From: Acidobacteriota bacterium
GTDB lineage: Bacteria > Acidobacteriota > UBA6911 > RPQK01 > JAJDTT01
Assembly: GCA_965263035.1 (NCBI GenBank)
Contig: OZ253580.1
Location: 2,304,001 to 2,368,000, forward strand
Length of the DNA stretch: 64,000 bases
Direction: 5' to 3'
In this document: piece by piece, positions 1 through 7,490 of the stretch
How the letters are laid out: every line of letters starts with the position of its first letter
Position numbering within the stretch: the stretch's first letter is position 1
Position numbers and translations under genes: made by a program
The notes under the pieces: generated by a model
Told to the model about the DNA's origin: nothing
Database searches by the model: none
Seen by the model: the letters and a program-made list of their open reading frames with translations, nothing else

Positions 1-632
1 ACTTCGTCGGGCGCAGGCGGCAGACCGATCAGGTCGAAGTAGGCGCGGCGAATCAGCGTGGGACGATCGGCCTCCTGTGCCGGACGAAACTGCTTCTCGT
101 GCAGCGTGGCGAGGACGAAACGATCAATGGGCGAGTCCCGCCACGCGGCCTCATCCGGACCTGCCGCGGACACCTGAGGCGGATCGACAGGACGCAGCGG
201 GCGGAAGGCCCAGTGGCGGCGTCCTGATTCGAGATCCATCTTCGCCGTGTCAATGGCCTTCGCATCTCTCGGATCGGGCGCGCCGAGGGCCACCCATTTG
301 ACGAAGTCAGCGATGACCTGGTCGGGCAGTTTGCCGCCCGGCGGCATCTGCAGGTTGGGGTCGGTGTAGTTGAGAGCGTCGATCAGCATCGACTGATCGG
401 GTCGCCCCGGCACGACGACGGAGCCCCGCGCCCCGCCCCGCTCGACACCCTCCCGCGTGTCCAGCTGCAGCTTCCCCATCAGCATTCCCGTGCCGGCGGC
501 CTCTGCCGAGTGACACTGATAGCAGCGCTCCGCCAGCACCGGACGGATCTTCTTCTCGAAGAAGTCGATACGGTTTTGACCGGGTTCCTCGGGGGCTCCG
601 AGCAGACTGAGGGCGATTACGAATAGGATCAC
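1..632 (-). CDS. PSD1/planctomycete cytochrome c domain protein (DUF1549/DUF1553 type); N-terminal part, runs off the window
   Basis: Manual translation from GTG at 632 gives a signal-like segment, then IDFFEKKIRPVLAERCYQCHSAE (CxxCH), typical of this family. Not in the ORF track because the stop lies outside the window. Confidence 0.8.
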   Translation of the reverse strand, partial: MILFVIALSLLGAPEEPGQNRIDFFEKKIRPVLAERCYQCHSAEAAGTGMLMGKLQLDTREGVERGGARGSVVVPGRPDQSMLIDALNYTDPNLQMPPGGKLPDQVIADFVKWVALGAPDPRDAKAIDTAKMDLESGRRHWAFRPLRPVDPPQVSAAGPDEAAWRDSPIDRFVLATLHEKQFRPAQEADRPTLIRRAYFDLIGLPPAPDE

Positions 633-716
633 GCGACTACCTTGGGCTTGTACTCGAAATCCTATTCGGATTGTAGAAGGAAATCCACCGAGCGAACGGA
701 CGTGTGCCTTGGTCCC

Positions 717-1589
717 TCAGTAGGTCCCAATCCCCAGCACATCCTTCTCCCAGGGTGTCAGTCGTTTGATCTGTTCGGGAGAAAGAGCGCGAACCTCCGT
801 GTACTCGGGGATGGTCTCCTCGAGACCCAGCAGCTTTCGCATTTCCGGGAGGAGACGATCTTGCACGCTCTGCGGGATGACGCGGGCGTTGTCGATCATC
901 CCTTTGACCCACCAGCGATGAAAAAAGGCCAAGATGGAATGCCGGTCGTGGTTGCTACGGTTGATGCCGCTGGCGTGCCAAAGCGCCGCATCCCAGACGA
1001 TGGCCGTACCCGCGGGAACAGTCGCTTGGTGGGATCCCGGGTAGTCCGCATCCGGGTCGGGGATCCGGCAAGATTTGTGAGTGCCGGGCCAAACCAGCGT
1101 AGCGCCGTTTTCGGCTTTGAAATCCACAACCGCCCAGGCGACATTGATTGCCATCGGGTAGTGCCTGCCGTCCTCGAAGGGCACGATGCTGAACGGAGAC
1201 CGGTCGGCGTGAATCTGAAACCCGCGCCCGGGTTCCCTGCCCTCGCTGGGTCGAATCGAACGCGCCGTCGTATCGTACAGAACCATATCCTCACCCAAGT
1301 AGTCACGGCACACGGAGAGGACCGCCGGGTTCAGGTAGAACGTTTCGAAGCAAGGGTGCTTGCCCACGATACAGTGGGCGGACCAGCAGTGCTCAGACGA
1401 AGTTCCCAGCCGCAGAGCGATTTCGCTCTCCCGTTGGTAGATATCTTCGGCCGCCTGAATGGCTGGAGCAAAATACTCGGCGTCGAGAGCGTCCGGGATG
1501 ATCGTGTAACCGTGCTCCTCAAGTTCTCCAACGTGGAACTCTCGTTCCGACGGCGTTAGTTCTCTACCGCTCGAGAAGCTGCTCTTCAT
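717..1589 (-). CDS. Phytanoyl-CoA dioxygenase family (PhyH-like) Fe(II)/2OG oxygenase
   Basis: HxD motif (IHAD), NGAT..PGTH and LWHASG.N motifs. Confidence 0.85.
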   Translation of the reverse strand: MKSSFSSGRELTPSEREFHVGELEEHGYTIIPDALDAEYFAPAIQAAEDIYQRESEIALRLGTSSEHCWSAHCIVGKHPCFETFYLNPAVLSVCRDYLGEDMVLYDTTARSIRPSEGREPGRGFQIHADRSPFSIVPFEDGRHYPMAINVAWAVVDFKAENGATLVWPGTHKSCRIPDPDADYPGSHQATVPAGTAIVWDAALWHASGINRSNHDRHSILAFFHRWWVKGMIDNARVIPQSVQDRLLPEMRKLLGLEETIPEYTEVRALSPEQIKRLTPWEKDVLGIGTY

Positions 1590-1687
1590 AAATCATGCCC
1601 CACAAACCGTTCTGGAAATGCCACTGCTTGGCAGCGTCTGCGTTAGTTAACCAGCCTACTACACGATTTCCTTCTCGAAAACACGCA

Positions 1688-1710
1688 GAGATGGTGACTG
1701 TCCCCTTCTC
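1688..1710. repeat. 23-bp imperfect palindrome, cassette-boundary motif copy A
   Basis: GAGATGGTGACTGTCCCCTTCTC; one of five co-oriented copies. Confidence 0.85.
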
Positions 1711-1777
1711 GCGCGCGCGGGTGACCCGCCAGATCCGCGCTCACGTCCGGTGACGTCCGCCAGCGCCGGCGGCCGCT

Positions 1778-2653
1778 TTATGGACCGGCCCGCCGCGATC
1801 GCGGGAGTGCCAGCGCCACGCCGCCAAGAATCAGCACGGAGGAGAGCACGAGCCGAAACGTGACGGACTCTCCCATGATGAGCACGCCGCCCGCCGCGGC
1901 GATCACGGGTACGGACAGCTGCACTGTGGCCGCGAAGGTCGCGGTGAGGCCGCCCAGCACCGTGTACCAGATCGCATAGCCGGCCCCCGACGCCAGCGCG
2001 CCGGAGGTGACGGCGAGCAGCGCGCCGGCAGGCGTGATCTCGAAGTCTCCCACGCTCAGCAGGCTGACTACCGCGACCATCGGCACGCTGCGAACGAAGT
2101 TATCGCGGGTTTCTCCCAGCGGGTCCGTAGCACCGCGGCCGTGAAGCGAGTACAGCCCCCAGGCGATCCCGGCCACCGCCATGAGCACGCTGCCCGTGGG
2201 AGACGGCGCCGTCACGCCCGGCAGCACCAGGTACGTCATGCCGCCGAGTGCGGAGGCCAAGCCGATCCACTGCAGCAGACGAGGGCGCTCACCGGAGACC
2301 AGGCCCGCGACGAGCATCGTGGCCTGCACCGCGGCAAAGAGGATCAGCGCGCCCGTGCCGGTCGTGAGCGTGTTGTACGCGAAGGAGAACGGGACCGCGT
2401 AAAGGAACAGGAGCGCCGCGGAGAACCAGCCCGCCCTGCGCGGCGTGCGCGCTCCCCGCCGCACGGCGTTGATGGCCGCGAGGGCCAGCGCCCCCGACAG
2501 CAGACGAATCGCGGAGAAGCTGGCCGCGTCGATCTCCCCGCCCCCGAGCGCCGCGCGGCACAGGACCGAGTTGGCGGCGAAGGCGACCATCGCCGCCGTC
2601 GTCAGGAGGCTGACGTACCTGACCCGCGCCACGGCGTCAGACGTGGCCACCAT
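1778..2653 (-). CDS. DMT/EamA family transporter
   Basis: About 10 hydrophobic helices with two EamA-like repeats; the true start may be slightly downstream. Confidence 0.85.
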   Translation of the reverse strand: MVATSDAVARVRYVSLLTTAAMVAFAANSVLCRAALGGGEIDAASFSAIRLLSGALALAAINAVRRGARTPRRAGWFSAALLFLYAVPFSFAYNTLTTGTGALILFAAVQATMLVAGLVSGERPRLLQWIGLASALGGMTYLVLPGVTAPSPTGSVLMAVAGIAWGLYSLHGRGATDPLGETRDNFVRSVPMVAVVSLLSVGDFEITPAGALLAVTSGALASGAGYAIWYTVLGGLTATFAATVQLSVPVIAAAGGVLIMGESVTFRLVLSSVLILGGVALALPRSRRAGP

Positions 2654-3126
2654 CGATCCACGTGCAGTAAATAGGTTTCGTATGATCCTCCGAATCTTTG
2701 ACGAAGTGTCGGCTCCTCATAGAACAGCACATTCAGGTGGAACGCCACCAGCATCACCCCTGCGTACGCGAACAGGCGGGCCTGGCCGAAGAGCAACGCC
2801 TGCCCTGAAATGATGATCAGCACGGAGACGTACATTGGGTTTCGCACGAACCGATAGAGGCCGGACGCCACCAGCACTTCGGTCTGCGCCACCGGTGCCG
2901 GTGTGCCACGCCCCTCAAGAACGAAGCGGGCGAAGCAGTCCAGCAGGCAGGCCAGGCCCGCCGCGACCGCCGCGACACCCACTACCCGCTCGCCCGGTAG
3001 CCCGAGCAGAGGTGGCTGCATCGTCCAACCGACCAGTGCGAACGGGCCGACGCCGGCAACGACAGCGGGAGCGACCCAGAAGAAGACGAACGACCCCACG
3101 ATCGCACGCGTACGTGTGCCCTTCAC
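2602..3126 (-). CDS. Isoprenylcysteine carboxyl/phospholipid methyltransferase family membrane protein
   Basis: GRGTPAP, LVASGLYRFVRNPMY and EEPTLRQRFG.SY motifs. Confidence 0.85.
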   Translation of the reverse strand: MKGTRTRAIVGSFVFFWVAPAVVAGVGPFALVGWTMQPPLLGLPGERVVGVAAVAAGLACLLDCFARFVLEGRGTPAPVAQTEVLVASGLYRFVRNPMYVSVLIIISGQALLFGQARLFAYAGVMLVAFHLNVLFYEEPTLRQRFGGSYETYLLHVDRWWPRLTPWRGSGTSAS

Positions 3127-3322
3127 AAACCCGTCATGAAACCCTGGGAGTCTGGCAGGTGATGTCCAGGCGGCTTCGCGCCTGTTGTCGTGCGCCGCCT
3201 GTGAGACTTCGCATGCAGTCTCGTCCCCCGTTCAGCATACCGGCACTCGCGCCAATTCTTAATTCTTTATAGCTTGATGGTAGTGCTATCAAGGAGAAGC
3301 CGTTCCCTCGGAGGAAGGGAAT

Positions 3323-3345
3323 GAGGTGGTGACTGTCCCCATTTC
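3323..3345. repeat. 23-bp imperfect palindrome, copy B
   Basis: GAGGTGGTGACTGTCCCCATTTC. Confidence 0.85.
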
Positions 3346-3431
3346 GTCCGCGGTCCGTTCTCAGATCTCCCACCGCCATCTCATTTGACCCGCAATCTCG
3401 AAGAGTGTATGGCTATTCATTGGCTTCAGAT

Positions 3432-4415
3432 ATGAGACACATCGTTGTTCTGCTGGTTTCTGCCCTGGCTTTTTTCGGTATCGGGACGGCTTGGTGCGAG
3501 GGGGCCGGGTCCGGGAAGCCTGATCCGGACGGCATCGGGCGCTTCTTCCTGGTCTCGTCGGAAGGGCTCTACATCGTCGAATCCGATGGCCGCTGTTCCT
3601 GGTCATTCACCGTCCCTCCACTCGACGGACAATCTCCCGGCGAGTTCGACGACCTGATCTACGACGGCTGGGCTCTCACCAACGGAAATATTCTCTACGG
3701 GACGCATCGCTATGTGCGAGAAATAAATCGCCAAAAGCAGACGGTGTGGGAGTACCGTGTCGAAGGAAAGAACAAGGTCAAGACCTGCCTGCCCTTGCCC
3801 AACGGCCGGGTAGCGGTGCTCAACAGCCAGGAGCAGGCCATTCTTGAATTGGAATCGGGGACCGGACAGGTCCTGCACCGGATCCCCGTTCCCGCTGAAG
3901 GAACACTCCATACCCGCTACAACCTCTTGCGTCGAACTCCGGAGGGAAACTACCTGGTCGCGCTGCGTGCCGAGGAGAGATTCGTGGAAGTGGATTCCGC
4001 CGGCAGGATCCTCCGCTCCCTGCCGGTCCCGAGTCTGCCTGCCCTGGCCCTGACGCTGAGCGACGGCACCACCCTCTGCAGCGGCCGCTTCGGCCTGATC
4101 AGGTTTGATGCGAACGAAAAAGTGACGTGGAGCTTCACCCCTGAGGATGCGGCGCCCCACTTCCCACTGTTGATCGCAGTCGGGATAGTGGAGCTGTCCG
4201 ACGGCCGATTGCTGGTGGTGAACTCCGACTGGCATTACCAGAAACCGGGTGAGAATCGTGTGCAGCTCTTCATCACGGATTCCTCGAAGGACGTTTCGTG
4301 GACTCTTCCGGTGACCGCCTTCGACGGCTGGAAGCGGGGAGAGATCGAGCCCAAGACGGGTCTGCTTGAACATCGAGCCGGGGTGGTCCAGCTGCTGGGC
4401 CCTGACATTCCCTGA
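3432..4415 (+). CDS. Secreted beta-propeller-like hypothetical protein
   Basis: Signal peptide MRHIVVLLVSALAFFG; repeated LxNG/LxDG..W blade-like motifs. Confidence 0.65.
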   Translation: MRHIVVLLVSALAFFGIGTAWCEGAGSGKPDPDGIGRFFLVSSEGLYIVESDGRCSWSFTVPPLDGQSPGEFDDLIYDGWALTNGNILYGTHRYVREINRQKQTVWEYRVEGKNKVKTCLPLPNGRVAVLNSQEQAILELESGTGQVLHRIPVPAEGTLHTRYNLLRRTPEGNYLVALRAEERFVEVDSAGRILRSLPVPSLPALALTLSDGTTLCSGRFGLIRFDANEKVTWSFTPEDAAPHFPLLIAVGIVELSDGRLLVVNSDWHYQKPGENRVQLFITDSSKDVSWTLPVTAFDGWKRGEIEPKTGLLEHRAGVVQLLGPDIP

Positions 4416-4454
4416 CCGTATTCACGGGTCTTCGTACCCTGGAACCGACCTCGC

Positions 4455-4477
4455 GAGAACGGGACTGTCCCCTTTTC
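4455..4477. repeat. 23-bp imperfect palindrome, copy C
   Basis: GAGAACGGGACTGTCCCCTTTTC. Confidence 0.8.
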
Positions 4478-4537
4478 GACTGTCCGGATGTAGAGACCTG
4501 CGACTTGTGACTTCTCGTTGAAGTTCAGCTCACTGGA

Positions 4538-5659
4538 TTACCGCGGCTGCAGCTTCACCCGCCAGAGCTCGAGACACTCACCCGACTGGTAGAGAATCAC
4601 GTTGGGCTCGACTTCGAAGATTGTCGGATAGGCCATTCTCCGGGAATAGTCGGCTACCGTGGTGGCAAGCCAGCCCTTTCCGGTGCCATCAGCATTGATT
4701 GCCAGTTGGCATTTCCTTCTCTGATCTTCTTGGCTCCAGTCCGTATTTTTCTCCCCGTGGCGCTGTACCAACTGGCCATAGGCTAGCGCCAAGCGCCCAT
4801 CCTTCAGCCTCAGCAGATAGGGGTCGACCCCAGGGCCCAGGCCCATGTCGGCGGGTGGGCTCCAGGTTCTTCCGCCGTCGCCGCTCCAGCTCGCCACCAT
4901 GGGCGAGTAGTGGCCGGTCCGCATCACGGCCAGCATCCGGCCATCGTCCAGCGGAAGCAACGCCCACTCATTGAATCCCTCCGTATCATCCTCCACCCCG
5001 GCACGCGGAGCGGCTACGGTGGAAAAGTATCGCCAGGTGTCTCCCTGATCGTCGGAGCGCATCAGGAAAGACCTCATCTTGGAGGGAGTCTCCATCTTGC
5101 TTCGAGGGTCGGTTGTCGGCATGTTGTCCTGCTCGAAGCTACCAATCATGCAGGCCAGCAGGGTCCCATCCGGCATCTCTCGAATGCCCCGATGGAAGAA
5201 GATGGCCGAGCTCTTCTGGCCCTTGACTTCCGAGAAGTCATCGTCGGGAACGGATCCTGCCTCCGGCATGATGAGGACCGTTTCCTTCTTCTCTACTGTC
5301 TTCATCCCGTCGCGGGAACGCCACATTCTCCCCACGCAGCGACCCGCCTCCCGACAGGTCACGTTCCAATAGAAGCCTAGGAACAGTCCCTTTCTCCAGA
5401 ACAAGGAGGTCAGCTTCTCGGCGAACAGGTACGAGCCAAACGGGGGATCGGACTCATCCACCGGCCAAAAATACCTGCCCCCATCGTTACTCTTGAGCGC
5501 CCCGTAGACATAGATGGTTCCATCCGGAGCCTGGACCGCCCTGGGATGACGACATCTGGCTGCCGTCACCTGCACATCCAACTCTGCCGCTGCCTGAATC
5601 ATGACCGGGGTCATGGTGATGAATGCCAGCAAATGGAATCCTCTCCGAACCTGCAGCAT
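4538..5659 (-). CDS. Secreted BNR/Asp-box repeat protein (sialidase-like glycoside hydrolase)
   Basis: Asp-boxes SNDGGRYF, SRDGMKT, SDDQGDTW, SGDGGRTW; signal peptide. Confidence 0.8.
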   Translation of the reverse strand: MLQVRRGFHLLAFITMTPVMIQAAAELDVQVTAARCRHPRAVQAPDGTIYVYGALKSNDGGRYFWPVDESDPPFGSYLFAEKLTSLFWRKGLFLGFYWNVTCREAGRCVGRMWRSRDGMKTVEKKETVLIMPEAGSVPDDDFSEVKGQKSSAIFFHRGIREMPDGTLLACMIGSFEQDNMPTTDPRSKMETPSKMRSFLMRSDDQGDTWRYFSTVAAPRAGVEDDTEGFNEWALLPLDDGRMLAVMRTGHYSPMVASWSGDGGRTWSPPADMGLGPGVDPYLLRLKDGRLALAYGQLVQRHGEKNTDWSQEDQRRKCQLAINADGTGKGWLATTVADYSRRMAYPTIFEVEPNVILYQSGECLELWRVKLQPR

Positions 5660-5742
5660 TTCATTTACCTCCTAATCCAGGTTGGGAAGGCGAAGTTTGC
5701 GTCGGCGGCTGTCACAGGCGCATGACTCTGCCGGAAGGTCGA

Positions 5743-5765
5743 GAGAAGGTGACTGTCCCCTTCTC
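5743..5765. repeat. 23-bp imperfect palindrome, copy D
   Basis: GAGAAGGTGACTGTCCCCTTCTC. Confidence 0.85.
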
Positions 5766-5916
5766 ATCTATACGAGAGCAACTCCTGGAGATCCTCGGCC
5801 GTCAGTCTCTCGGCGGAAGCGACCGTCTCGCGCACCTCAGAGAGCCGTGTTTCTCGACCGCCGGATAGTGCCTTGAGGACCGGTAACATCAACATTTGAA
5901 AGTCAGGAACGGGCAT
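5764..5916 (-). pseudogene. mrr: Truncated Mrr restriction protein (start of the Mrr N-terminal domain only, 50 aa)
   Basis: Manual translation MPVPDFQMLMLPVLKALSGGRETRLSEVRETVASAERLTAEDLQELLSYR* matches the typical Mrr N-terminus; GGGAG RBS upstream; stops at palindrome D. Confidence 0.75.
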
Positions 5917-6241
5917 CGGTCGTACTCCCTGCTATCGACCCAATCGTTTGCCGGGGCTGGACACGCTCAACAATCCGGCGGCCAGACTCGATTTCTTCCC
6001 GCCGCAGTTCCCAAGTCTTCTGCAGGTTCATCCAGACCTGCGGAGTCGTCCCAAAGTAGCGCGCCAGGCGCAATGCCGTGTTGGCGGTCACACCCCGCTG
6101 TCCATTCAGGATCGCTGTGATTCGATTCACGGGCACGTCCAGCGCTTTCGACAGCGCATTGGCCGACATGCCAAGCGCGTCTAGTTCGTCCCGCAAGATC
6201 TCTCCCGGATGCACCGGTCGCATCCTATTCTTGAAACTCAT
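5903..6241 (-). CDS. higA: HigA family antitoxin (XRE HTH)
   Basis: MRPVHPGEILRDEL...TALRLARYFGTTPQVWMNLQ; start at ATG 6241 after GAGGAG. Confidence 0.92.
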   Translation of the reverse strand: MSFKNRMRPVHPGEILRDELDALGMSANALSKALDVPVNRITAILNGQRGVTANTALRLARYFGTTPQVWMNLQKTWELRREEIESGRRIVERVQPRQTIGSIAGSTTDARS

Positions 6242-6254
6242 CGCCTCGATCTCC

Positions 6255-6340
6255 TCAGTGATAATCCACGATCTCGACTTCGTAGGGCCCATCAACGCCC
6301 AGCATATTAACGACCACGACCGGAGGATGCTGTACAACGG
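6255..6340 (-). pseudogene. higB: HigB toxin C-terminal remnant
   Basis: DGPYEVEIVDYH* ends 14 nt before higA; a YSI motif lies upstream in another frame; 5' part missing. Confidence 0.7.
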
Positions 6341-6745
6341 CTGCCGCCCCATGGCGGTGGTGGTGAAAGGCTTGAGCAACGATGCGGAGAAAATCGGTCT
6401 AACCGAGCATCGCCTCTGGCTTGCAGCGGTGATGCACCTGCGGCCGGTCGGCCTCGACACGGATCTTTATGACCGAGACAAGACAGACGGGTCAATTCCA
6501 TACGTGAGCGCCCATGTCTTTGGTCCTGGATTCAACGTATCAGTGGAGTACTCGGGGCAGTGCCATGCAACCGCAAGGGGGAAATGTGGCGGGATTACAG
6601 AGTAGGGCATATGCTCCCCGGAGCAGCAGCTGGAACGCTTCGCTGCGGCGCCGCCCAAGTCGTCCTCGCGCCGCTGAACTCCCTCATCTTTAGGTTTCGG
6701 GAGGAGTCCCTGCGAGTGAAGGAAGAAGATTGCCGCCGCCGCTGA
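6327..6745 (+). pseudogene. Degraded hypothetical gene (frameshifted) occupying the place of the higB 5' end
   Basis: Protein-like stretch MLYNGCRPMAVVVKGLSNDAEKIGLTE...VSVEY, then a C-terminal-like piece in another frame; family not identified. Confidence 0.35.
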
Positions 6746-6771
6746 GCCAAGAGAAGGCGAGGATCGGGAAA

Positions 6772-6794
6772 GAGATGGTGACTGTCCCCTTCTG
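6772..6794. repeat. 23-bp imperfect palindrome, copy E (closest to ssrA)
   Basis: GAGATGGTGACTGTCCCCTTCTG; flanking sequence can extend the hairpin to about 6751-6812. Confidence 0.85.
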
Positions 6795-6892
6795 AAGACT
6801 CCGGTCCTTCTCGACTCAAAATAAAAATGTCCGAAAGGAGAGCAAGAGTTGAGAGTATGACCGCCCCAGAGAAAGGGAAGGACGTGAGGGAC

Positions 6893-6928
6893 GCTCGTCG
6901 CTCCGGGGACCTTCCCGGAGAGACGAGT
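6893..6928 (-). terminator. GC-rich hairpin just 3' of tmRNA
   Basis: CTCGTC-G-CTCCGG...CCGGAG-A-GACGAG inverted repeat 15 nt after the CCA; no clear U-tract. Confidence 0.5.
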
Positions 6929-6942
6929 TGTGCTTGGAAGGA

Positions 6943-7298
6943 TGGTGGAGGCGGTGGGAATCGAACCCACGTCCGGAAGCCTTCGGCGGCAGAATCTACA
7001 TGCTTATCCAGTTTCCCGATCCGATCCAACTGGCATGGAAACTGGAAAAGCCGCCAGCCGAACCGTCCCTCATCAGGGTCTCAGTCCCTCGCCGAGGGAG
7101 GGGCAAGGAACTGACAAGCCCGCTGAAATGACGCCCCGAACCTCCCTGCGGGCCTGAAGGCCGGAACGACCGCGTTAATTACGCGGCGAGTGCGAACTCA
7201 TCGTTGGCACTTGATGTTTTTACCACGGTTTTACGAGGTGGTGGCACCTCGACATGCATCTACGACCTCAACTACTCCCGTCGAATCCAGTCGCCCCC
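6943..7298 (-). ncRNA. ssrA: tmRNA (SsrA); tag peptide ANDEFALAA* at 7208-7179
   Basis: 5' GGGGGCGACTGGATTCGAC and 3' GGACGTGGGTTCGATTCCCACCGCCTCCACCA; G3-U acceptor pair; 356 nt; canonical tag ending ALAA. Confidence 0.97.
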
Positions 7299-7320
7299 CT
7301 TTCCTAGTCCTTATCCTATC

Positions 7321-7350
7321 AAGACGGCGGTTAGCCCGGTGCGGTTGCAA
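7321..7350 (-). promoter_or_regulatory. Putative ECF-sigma promoter of ssrA
   Basis: TTGCAAC-N17-CGTCTT ending 22 nt before the mature 5' end; near-identical to the site upstream of the ECF sigma gene. Confidence 0.55.
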
Positions 7351-7490
7351 AAAAGATTGGCGGCCCCGACGCTTTGTGAATCCTACTCGGCTCCTCATAC
7401 GCCGGATTCCGCCGGTGAACGCTCGCCGTAGTTCGGGTCGGGACTCCGAATCGGACGAGCCGCCGGCCTCCAGACTGCTATCATCTTCCT

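Follow-up and report, generated by a model that had tools for sequence, protein, structure and literature searches.

Co-oriented REP-like palindromes linked to a multicopy RAYT-like transposase mark the turnover of gene modules beside the tmRNA gene of an Acidobacteriota bacterium

The window analyzed here is a 64,000-nt stretch of an Acidobacteriota genome (G000; assembly GCA_965263035.1, contig OZ253580.1, positions 2,304,001 to 2,368,000). Near its left end, five copies of a 23-nt imperfect palindrome, designated REP, delimit gene modules on the flank of the tmRNA gene (ssrA). The arrangement is as follows.

1..1687, minus strand: module M0 (C0), the end of a PSCyt/PSD1-type gene and a PhyH dioxygenase gene (717-1586)
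1688..1710, plus strand: REP copy 1 (GAGATGGTGACTGTCCCCTTCTC), between the PhyH-family gene and the EamA gene
1711..3322, minus strand: module M1 (C1), an EamA transporter (1778-2650) and a PEMT/ICMT-type methyltransferase (2602-3123)
3323..3345, plus strand: REP copy 2, between the divergent PEMT/ICMT and propeller genes
3346..4454, plus strand: module M2 (C2), a putative secreted propeller (3405-4412)
4455..4477, plus strand: REP copy 3, between the convergent propeller and BNR genes
4478..5742, minus strand: module M3 (C3), a BNR_2 repeat protein (4538-5656)
5743..5765, plus strand: REP copy 4, exactly the family consensus, its 3' edge abutting the stop of the truncated mrr gene
5766..6771, minus strand: module M4, an mrr fragment (5767-5916), an HTH_3 gene (5906-6460), and unassigned DNA
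6772..6794, plus strand: REP copy 5, which closes the array 148 nt short of the tmRNA 3' end
6943..7298, minus strand: tmRNA gene, tag ANDEFALAA

A first-pass annotation of the window had reported these five co-oriented copies and none elsewhere in it, and two motif scans agree. A search for GGKGACTGTCCCC with at most one mismatch returned five matches in the 64-kb window, at 1693, 3328, 4460, 5748, and 6777, all on the plus strand; among 100 shuffled windows the average was 0.64 matches and the highest count 3, and none reached five. A position-weight scan (score of at least 12) recovered the same five 23-mers and no sixth. As the annotation had also stated, and as can be read directly from the 23-mers, the core GAC-T-GTCCCC is invariant across all five, and a T at position 8 faces a C at position 16 in four of them; copy 3 lacks this mismatch because its position 8 is G, and a partial core repeat, GACTGTCC, comes after it. 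All five copies lie between Pfam-supported open reading frames, and the distance from the last copy to ssrA, previously put at about 150 nt, was measured at 148 nt. The module labels assigned earlier fit for the EamA, methyltransferase, BNR, and HTH_3 genes, for the propeller (a weak, Mala_s_1-like match of 27.6 bits), and for the mrr fragment, which covers positions 1-43 of the 87 in Mrr_N, but the proposed HigB remnant was not found.

The array is real and co-oriented, as first described, but it is not private to this locus. The five copies are the last of 19 plus-strand copies that occupy 30 kb of the genome (2280740 to 2310772), a row that extends 24 kb upstream of the window and ends at the tmRNA gene. 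Across the genome, 100 copies were found at up to five mismatches, compared with 3 in a reversed-genome control; the family comprises about 100-135 copies. The first-pass annotation had named a motif scattered at random in both orientations, like an ordinary REP, as grounds for rejecting its idea, and half of this applies: both strands are used genome-wide (55 plus, 45 minus). Of 135 copies, 87 lie in 14 clusters (random mean, 7), and neighbors less than 2 kb apart face the same way in 53 cases and opposite ways in 3 (20 and 1 for neighbors less than 500 nt apart). At the tmRNA flank of eight genomes, 99 of 109 copies are co-oriented. This co-orientation extends over kilobases and is independent of gene direction and replichore.

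Family members share an invariant core and differ in their arms, and the T8/C16 mismatch is present in 76 of 100 copies; in a position-by-position profile, conservation does not extend beyond positions -1 to 23. About 86% of the genome is coding sequence, and 88 of 100 copies are intergenic. As an intergenic, near-palindromic 23-mer of which, in G000, either strand is predicted to fold into a modest hairpin (-4 to -8 kcal/mol), the repeat could in principle be a functional host site between acquired genes, for example an operator for a dimeric regulator, a terminator, an insulator, or a site for a nucleoid protein. Such a role is very improbable. The repeat has no fixed place relative to gene starts or ends (27, 23, 22, and 16 copies in the four configurations) and carries no T-run, its sub-variants are cluster-specific, and it co-occurs with a transposase rather than with a regulator. 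In genome G023, moreover, it forms dense tandem arrays with a spacing of 30-200 nt.

The transposase in question is a RAYT-like Y1/HUH protein of 311 amino acids, encoded by four gene copies elsewhere in G000 and by 3-12 copies per genome, with a C-terminal extension of about 130 residues. The HUH residues H63 and H65 and the tyrosine Y162 are invariant in 21 homologues, and JGI gives homologues the name RayT. The protein spans positions 3-145 of the 146 in the NF047646 REP_Tyr_transpos model, with a score (46.8 bits) below the cut-off of 80, and the G023 copy matches Pfam Y1_Tnp at 36.6 bits (cut-off, 23). In structural comparison, the predicted model (pLDDT 66.8) comes closest to the E. coli RAYT in complex with a REP hairpin (4er8), with a weak E value of 7e-3.

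Two lines of evidence tie this enzyme to the repeat. All four RAYT genes of G000 have an opposite-facing variant of the motif upstream and a same-facing variant downstream, and the G023 RAYT gene shows the same inverted flanking; the flanking repeats share with the array type only the common core GACTGTCCC(C)TT, and their left arms differ. In addition, the motif and a close RAYT (71-85% identity) occur together in all 10 motif-bearing genomes, which are all nine genomes of the genus and one from another family, although these genomes are related and the counts are not independent. The pair occurs in none of 31 other relatives, where the best RAYT identity is 58%, and the exact 16-mer is multicopy in only those 10 among 137 genomes of the class. 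The palindromes are thus REP-like and tied to a multicopy Y1/HUH transposase of RAYT-like type whose genes lie elsewhere in the genome, an enzyme whose existence had been guessed from the window alone. With 85% identity to G023 and 56% to the sister genus, the RAYT appears, on sequence comparison, to have been transferred between families. The G023 repeat has a left arm that is neither complementary nor symmetric and does not fold (0 kcal/mol), which indicates that the hairpin may not be the recognized feature.

The rows of co-oriented repeats around variable modules raise the question of a true integron or of an attC cluster without integrase (CALIN). This identity was rejected, its residual probability being negligible: the best match to the IntI model TIGR02249 scored 78.7 bits against a cut-off of 265, which 0 of 20 matches reached, and positions 1-7400 of the window contain no RYYYAAC...GTTRRRY pair, compared with 0.84 expected from shuffles. 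attC sites are roughly 55-140 nt long, far above the 23 nt found here. The earlier exclusion of attC and dif sites was therefore correct, but the accompanying idea of integron-style cassettes was not borne out. By a crude gene caller, 21 of 66 modules contain no gene, 23 contain one, and 22 contain two to five, and the relative orientation of module genes is random (45 same, 43 opposite). Integron arrays and CALINs resemble the present arrays in their rows of co-oriented, site-like repeats, each tied to a module on one side, in the gain, loss, and reordering of modules between relatives, and in having a folded single strand as a plausible substrate. They differ in possessing IntI, attC architecture, attI, and a common promoter, and in carrying mostly single, promoterless, one-way ORFs rather than modules of zero to five genes in either direction; here, many arrays per genome are accompanied by dispersed single copies.

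Comparison of the ssrA flank among relatives, as the first-pass annotation had proposed, revealed module gain, loss, and reordering, with homology ending at or near the motif. M0 is conserved beside the array in 7 of 8 other genomes of the genus, its homology stopping at 1707-1712, at REP copy 1, and the tmRNA gene is the fixed right-hand border in 8 of 8 genus genomes compared. Single modules are present or absent across eight congeneric genomes. M1 was not found in G004, and M3 was not found in G006, which has only paralogues at 65-68%; M4 is absent from the corresponding position in G005, whose modules also stand in a different order from those of G000. Four other genomes carry an extra 1.06-kb module (C5), with a REP on each side, between M1 and M2, and one to five additional modules lie between M2 and M3 in other genomes. 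Similar turnover occurs at an array at 5.55 Mb and at "singleton" sites. The median distance from a homology end to the nearest repeat is 36 nt, compared with 429 nt for random positions, in genomes whose relatedness makes the turnover counts non-independent; against an intergenic-only null in G000, 15 of 24 ends lie within 50 nt of a repeat, where 25% is expected. The repeats mark where relatives differ through gain, loss, duplication, and reordering of modules 0.03-6 kb in size. Such differences of entire gene blocks at the repeats hint, from sequence comparison, at integron-like gene swapping.

A simpler model would hold that the REPs are passive, a selfish repeat that spreads into the spacers of fast-evolving regions rich in foreign DNA and merely marks intergenic DNA, while turnover results from homologous recombination after transfer, from IS elements or integrases, or from slippage between short direct repeats. 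This model is rather unlikely. In its favor, the family is genome-wide and in both orientations, and the arrays contain IS110 and DDE transposases, toxin-antitoxin genes, and integrase fragments. In the G000 array, 22 of 46 distinct homology ends fall inside called genes, away from repeats, so that much of the turnover takes place elsewhere. The G023 arrays look like tandem amplification of units of about 200 nt, and other REP families show clusters reiterated along with their flanking DNA (PMC3733652). Other observations weigh against the RAYT-based explanation given below. Modules are heterogeneous, with genes facing either way, and deletion can arise between 23-bp direct repeats without a dedicated enzyme. 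The repeats beside the RAYT genes have differing left arms, and the repeat of G023 does not fold. The HTH part of M4 is multicopy across the genus, and the HTH module is repeat-flanked in just 3 of 12 places examined; one array gene has copies elsewhere without repeats. Fine mapping of crossovers gave mixed answers. Among joints in assembled contigs, no REP-to-REP joint or excised circle was seen, the joints being repeat artefacts with sides of 20-26 nt. Passive spread, in turn, leaves unexplained both the 53:3 co-orientation over kilobases and the asymmetry described below. It also sits poorly with Pseudomonas, whose variable and mobile regions are REP deserts (PMC3390384), the opposite of the pattern here.

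The two sides of the repeat are not equivalent. The left flank alone is conserved 140 times and the right flank alone 64 times, and homology and repeat are separated by a median of 2 nt on the left side but of 16 nt on the right. Homology of the left flank reaches the repeat, whereas a variable zone and tandem "stutter" scars lie on its 3' side: extra right-half copies occur downstream at 22 of 96 copies and upstream at 3. In the window, the mrr gene is truncated exactly at the 3' edge of REP copy 4, and a near-identical strain (X1) has a polymorphic 21-nt tandem duplication that starts inside REP copy 5. The module that stays joined to a repeat is the one to its left (5'), and the unstable zone lies within about 20 nt of the repeat on the 3' side.

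The same asymmetry bears on a tyrosine recombinase acting on double-stranded DNA, an explanation that is very improbable. Read as 8-7-8 (GAGAAGGT / GACTGTC / CCCTTCTC), the repeat resembles a core site that would have a 7-bp overlap with the central T providing polarity, and modules would be exchanged, in the manner of pdif sites, by an integrase that is Xer-like or multicopy. The invariant core with variable arms and the T at the center of 94 of 100 copies fit this reading, as does a Phage_integrase gene (81 bits) that ends at the first copy of the 5.55-Mb array and is present as fragments inside a 1.94-Mb array. Yet this integrase belongs to a multicopy mobile family and adjoins one array only, and no full copy was found in G004, G005, G008, or G023, all of which have arrays; the asymmetric left arm in G023 and the one-sided scars also speak against it. 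The pdif/Xer sites of Acinetobacter plasmids, short palindromes with an 11-6-11 organization and alternating orientation that bound modules varying between replicons, are likewise short palindromic module borders, but the repeats here are 11-1-11 and co-oriented.

Among known systems, REP/RAYT pairs (E. coli TnpA-REP, PDB 4er8; Pseudomonas REPINs) share a short, imperfect, extragenic palindrome in about 100 or more copies, a Y1/HUH gene between inverted repeat copies, and a lineage-specific repeat sequence that tracks the enzyme. Classical REPs, however, form inverted pairs (BIMEs or REPINs), and here single, co-oriented copies concentrate in variable rather than stable regions, with gene-size modules turning over between them. 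The RAYT, too, departs from that pattern in being multicopy, in its 311-residue length with a long C-terminal extension, and in its apparent transfer between families. A GTAG or CGTC tetranucleotide tag marks two REP superfamilies (PMC3733652); neither occurs in the repeat profile. IS200/IS605 elements and PATEs share the Y1 HUH fold, subterminal structures on one strand that imply co-oriented ends, and the lack of inverted terminal repeats. The unstable zone 3' of the repeat agrees with IS200/IS605 polarity but not with its two-end anatomy of different hairpins at the left and right ends. Each module here has one repeat, the passengers are unrelated host-type genes, the enzyme has twice the length, and the flank profile of the repeat showed no conserved target tetranucleotide or flank word of that type. 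Finally, IS26 translocatable units (PMC4196232), in which one repeat and its adjacent DNA insert beside a resident copy, would likewise produce direct-repeat arrays with cargo, but the repeat here is a noncoding 23-mer and the trans-acting enzyme is of a different superfamily.

Taken together, the best explanation, with a probability of roughly 0.6, is that the palindromes are a REP-type family of the multicopy RAYT, that single co-oriented copies form arrays, and that the repeats mark module turnover, with cutting by the RAYT as the presumed cause. In the proposed mechanism, the RAYT would recognize one strand of the repeat and nick directly 3' of it. Two cuts at co-oriented repeats would free a piece consisting of a module and its repeat, presumably through single-stranded intermediates and circles, and this piece would insert by rejoining 3' of another resident repeat. 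Serial insertions would automatically yield rows of co-oriented repeats, a topology like that of integron cassettes or IS26 translocatable units.

More generally, these arrays may represent a second, independent gene-cassette platform, in which a trans-acting HUH/Y1 RAYT would catalyze cassette movement, with 23-nt REPs serving as single-strand recombination sites and module-plus-REP units being excised and re-inserted 3' of resident REPs. This broader reading is tentative and somewhat doubtful. If it is true, several integron-like arrays would exist per chromosome, one of them anchored at ssrA, and one relative would also have them on a contig of plasmid size. Ordinary genes would be captured, shuffled, and discarded by the arrays, and RAYTs and REPs would gain a concrete role in genome plasticity.

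Five co-oriented palindromes do lie near the tmRNA gene, as the first-pass annotation had reported: at no more than one mismatch, GGKGACTGTCCCC has five matches in the 64-kb window (1693, 3328, 4460, 5748 and 6777, all on the + strand), compared with a mean of 0.64 in the shuffled window, where none of 100 shuffles reached five. The T8/C16 mismatch is present in four of the five copies, and in an Rfam scan the gathering score was reached by tmRNA only.

1688, 3323, 4455, 5743 and 6772, + strand: full units of the 23-nt imperfect palindrome, by sequence inspection
6943–7298, − strand: tmRNA gene, 148 nt beyond the last repeat copy

Of the module contents that had been named, Pfam supports EamA with PEMT/ICMT, the propeller (weakly), BNR_2, and an Mrr_N fragment with an HTH_3 gene, whereas the supposed HigB remnant was not found. 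The mrr gene retains its first 50 codons and breaks off precisely at the 3′ boundary of copy 4, which marks this truncation as a joint at the repeat and not as the mere insertion of one. A near-identical strain known from assembled sequencing contigs (run X1; ~99% identical over the stretch) carries a 21-nt tandem duplication that starts at 6781, in the core of copy 5, and extends 8 nt beyond the repeat.

The window copies are the last five in a row of 19 + copies, which runs from 2280740 to 2310772 of the studied genome (G000), a single 6.198-Mb contig of 62.1% GC in which the window covers 2304001–2368000. The consensus GAGAAGGTGACTGTCCCCTTCTC has 100 copies in this genome at up to five mismatches (55 +, 45 −) and 89 at up to four, compared with 3 and 0, respectively, in the reversed genome. 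A weight-matrix scan at a score of at least 12 yielded 135 copies after de-duplication; at the same threshold without de-duplication, both strands counted, there were 214 matches versus 7 in the control. Conserved bases occupy repeat positions −1 to 23, with none outside. The clustering and co-orientation for which a whole-genome scan had been proposed hold for neighbouring copies, but the family as such is genome-wide and on both strands. Same-facing and opposite-facing neighbour pairs number 20:1 at distances up to 500 nt, 53:3 up to 2 kb and 73:10 up to 10 kb, and 14 clusters of at least three copies hold 87 of the 135 copies (random placement: mean 7, maximum 21). Three further arrays in the genome are:

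1943251–1958970, − strand: repeat array, 10 copies
4263586–4271181, + strand: repeat array, 6 copies
5548266–5558912, − strand: repeat array, 13 copies

GC content is 58–59% in three of four arrays, and their contents include toxin–antitoxin genes, IS110 and DDE transposases, and many family-less proteins. Inter-repeat modules number 66 and span 25–6011 nt, with a median of 1049 nt; no gene was called in 21 of them, one in 23, and two to five in 22. Upstream of the window, the array includes two tandem DUF1501 genes (2298697–2302188; 92% identical), each preceded by a repeat, and the pair adjoins a PSCyt/PSD1 gene that extends into the window start.

The shared orientation does not follow replication-strand bias: the arrays do not change direction at the turning points of cumulative GC skew, near 2.85 and 5.8 Mb, and a single replichore holds both the 1.94-Mb array (−) and the 2.28–2.31-Mb array (+). 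Nor does repeat orientation go with the direction of genes (45 face the same way, 43 the opposite way) or with their ends, and the four gene-end configurations around repeat copies are all represented (27, 23, 22 and 16). Gene calls from a crude caller of our own place 88 of 100 copies between genes, in a genome with ~86% coding sequence.

The family is narrowly distributed. At up to one mismatch, the 18-mer GGTRACTGTCCCCTTCTC occurs in all eight other genomes of the genus, with 8–69 copies each, and 0–2 times in 31 other relatives, the exception being G023, a genome from another family, where 50 copies form dense co-oriented arrays. Among 137 genomes of the class, an exact 16-mer is multicopy in the genus and G023 only; three further genomes have single matches, and backward-pattern controls gave two single matches. 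These tallies take in one unpublished genome (G016) among those without the motif. In the congener G007 (~6.4 Mb in total), whose second contig measures 6.29 Mb, the plasmid-size first contig bears at least eight exact 16-mer copies, a co-oriented repeat row at 122730–128493, and integrase-family fragments; this contig could be a transfer vehicle of the system.

Gain, loss and reordering of modules at the ssrA flank, which had been suggested as a check, were seen across eight genomes of the genus, with homology ends enriched near repeats. In these genomes, a search with window positions 1–7400 recovered the relative order of the first four window modules (M0–M3, also termed C0–C3) with extra modules in between; M1 was not found in G004, nor M3 in G006. 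The distance from M3 to the tmRNA gene ranges from 1.2 to 62 kb. The arrays of the studied genome and G005 have their borders in common (left, a TPR/AhpC gene; right, the tmRNA gene); between them, modules are 85–92% identical and all in the same orientation, their order is changed, and other DNA takes the place of M4. On the tmRNA side of the studied genome and seven relatives, 99 of 109 copies point in the array direction, and the module strings differ by single modules present or absent. Four genomes, for example, have module C5 between C1 and C2 with a repeat copy on either side, where the studied genome has a single copy; C9 precedes C1 in G006 and G007 and follows it in G001; and C11 shifts relative to C12 and C13. 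Turnover is similar at the 5.55-Mb array, where GFO and TumE modules adjoin in four relatives and are separated by two extra modules in the studied genome. Two apparently singleton repeat sites are also variable, one being empty in G001 and holding one to five co-oriented copies in other genomes. A search for modules in common between arrays of the studied genome found only local duplications. Behind C2 in G005, a 3.4-kb insertion (contig positions 2326651–2330022; loci L016/L017) seemingly splits a repeat, with the left arm GAGAAC on one side and a core remnant on the other; it looks like an IS targeting the repeat.

Quantitatively, the median distance from a homology end to a repeat copy is 36 nt (694 ends), compared with 429 nt for random positions, and 54% of ends versus 9% of random positions fall within 50 nt. 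Against an intergenic-only null in the studied genome, 15 of 24 intergenic ends fall within 50 nt of a repeat, compared with 25% expected; of 46 distinct homology ends in its array, 22 lie inside called genes.

According to PMC3390384, classical REPs mostly form inverted pairs, and variable and mobile regions are REP deserts; REP head-to-tail dimers, as well as clusters reiterated with flanking DNA, are also on record (PMC3733652). REPs are placed in stable genome parts, and their RAYTs are presented as vertically inherited (PMC3390384; 10.1101/119735) and typically single-copy (10.1101/119735). Here, in contrast, single co-oriented copies form arrays in the most variable regions, whole modules differ between species at the repeats, and scars are one-sided. 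With moderate confidence, we regard the array organisation as unusual, integron-like and a mark of module turnover.

A true integron was rejected, in agreement with the first-pass annotation, which had excluded an attC-based one: the best IntI score in the studied genome is 78.7 bits against a cut-off of 265, and window positions 1–7400 contain no attC-type core pairs. A tyrosine recombinase beside the 5.55-Mb array is also an unlikely array enzyme, as it belongs to a multicopy mobile family; the array-bearing G004, G005, G008 and G023 hold only fragments of this family. Its ~334-aa members in the studied genome (5547290–5548480, 2087369, 3683196 and 5656001) are 84–92% identical, the first of these runs up to the first repeat of the 5.55-Mb array, and the 1.94-Mb array contains fragments at 1945378 and 1954619.

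The Y1/HUH, RAYT-like enzyme that had been guessed at does exist in the genome. A Pfam Y1_Tnp search first gave two short genes, which were set aside because the repeat flanks neither; a different, 8-4-8 hairpin does. This second hairpin family, GGGGGACA-nnnn-TGTCCCCC, has ~17 dispersed copies in the studied genome (for example at 99669, 302090, 1666458 and 2013118, all outside the window; also at 1058–1080 and 1795–1817 of fetched locus L001). Similar hairpins flank the short Y1_Tnp gene at 3478135 in direct orientation, and this family, which has the GTCCCC word in common, is perhaps an IS200-like or REP system of its own.

The relevant RAYT was reached only through G023, in which a gene for a 311-aa Y1_Tnp protein has an opposite-facing repeat upstream and same-facing copies downstream. 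Four genes in the studied genome (800924, 1560688, 1832165 and 5961195) are 81–85% identical to it, and repeat variants flank all four: the opposite-facing GGAAAAA(C/T)AGACTGTCCCCTT lies 143–495 nt upstream of each and a same-facing variant, mostly CGAGACTGTCCCTTTC, 175–300 nt downstream. Genomes of the genus have 3–12 matches each at 71–80% identity; elsewhere, the best identities are 44–56% in the sister genus and 58% in G017, another relative. Residues H63, H65 and Y162 are invariant. The protein matches NF047646 (REP_Tyr_transpos) at 46.8 bits, under the cut-off of 80, and JGI annotates its homologues as RayT. An AlphaFold model (mean pLDDT 66.8; residues 30–130 good) has as its best structural match 4er8, in which the E. 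coli RAYT is bound to a REP hairpin, and the ISDra2 and ISHp608 transposases come next, none at an E value of 0.001 or better; a PDB sequence search gave no significant match. We assign repeat and enzyme to the REP/RAYT family with high confidence.

The junctions themselves are polarised. When 70-nt flanks of all + copies were compared by local homology with every other genome (693 comparisons), the left flank alone was conserved next to a copy in 140 and the right alone in 64; both were conserved at the same copy in 47, both at different copies in 25, and neither in 417. A stricter 40-nt global test, over-strict near indels, found 7 conserved and no recombinant junctions. On the left, homology runs to a median of 2 nt from the repeat (≤3 nt in 51 of 98 cases); on the right, the median gap is 16 nt (≤3 nt in 18 of 70). 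Furthermore, for 22 of 96 copies in the studied genome, the right-half word recurs in the 30 nt downstream; the upstream count is 3, and inverted words number 1 downstream and 5 upstream. The extra words are 12–21-nt tandem duplications, from GTCCCC to 1–10 nt past the repeat; G003 shows extreme stutter. The bulk flank statistics point to an exchange on the 3′ side of the repeat. The trailing repeat variant of C2, its TTTTC right arm included, stays with C2 regardless of the next module, and the C2/C18 case suggests an exchange at the left edge.

The simplest model for co-oriented rows is that a piece carrying one site is inserted repeatedly beside a resident site, the insertion topology of integron cassettes and IS26 translocatable units. 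Based on the RAYT link and the one-sided scars, the RAYT would nick the strand that carries the repeat, immediately 3′ of it; a pair of these cuts would free a module plus its repeat, and rejoining at another repeat would insert it. In G023, a dispersed ~200-nt non-coding unit has the repeat as its 3′ end, in keeping with the idea of a body-plus-repeat unit. At contig positions 1420000–1490000 of this genome (L018–L021), this unit A has a GC-rich hairpin near its 5′ end and occurs in tandem arrays, alternating with a second unit.

On these genomic comparisons, RAYT-driven cassette movement is plausible. Short-repeat deletion together with ordinary recombination could explain part of the pattern, and several observations weigh against the RAYT model: many homology ends lie away from repeats, the G023 repeat is unable to fold, RAYT-proximal variants have just the core in common with the array type, and crossover mapping is ambiguous, both at C2/C18 and at copy 2300228, which resembles a hybrid of two G005 copies. 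Genes from the arrays also occur without repeats. The HTH_3 (HigA-like) gene of M4 (window 5906–6460) is multicopy across the genus, at 83–90% DNA identity and in many unrelated contexts; of 12 places fetched, only 3 are REP-flanked (one inverted) and 5 lack any REP across the ~9–10 kb fetched, so that a travelling REP cassette is not supported for this module. A gene for a 509-aa protein likewise also occurs without repeats, and one copy, at 5557340–5558860, lies in a repeat array; the protein has no Pfam family and belongs to a large paralogous family (dozens of 65–75% DNA matches per genome, e.g., 6149528–6151039). Logan contigs demonstrated no deletion or circle joint: joints at 1710>5740, 1713>5739, 1714>5741, 3309>6771, 3342>5743 and 4478>5742, with sides of 20–26 nt, are repeat artefacts, because contigs break at the repeat, and lend no support to deletions or circles.

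The role of REPs and RAYTs for or against their hosts has been debated since the discovery of REPs. No description of co-oriented, RAYT-linked module arrays was found in the full-text literature searched, which takes in few subscription journals. If the RAYT moves units of module plus repeat, the arrays would represent a HUH-based, integron-like system of gene capture and, with a short site, one protein and several arrays, a tractable model. If it does not, the arrays are still a clear case of REPs as preferred breakpoints in the turnover of genome islands.
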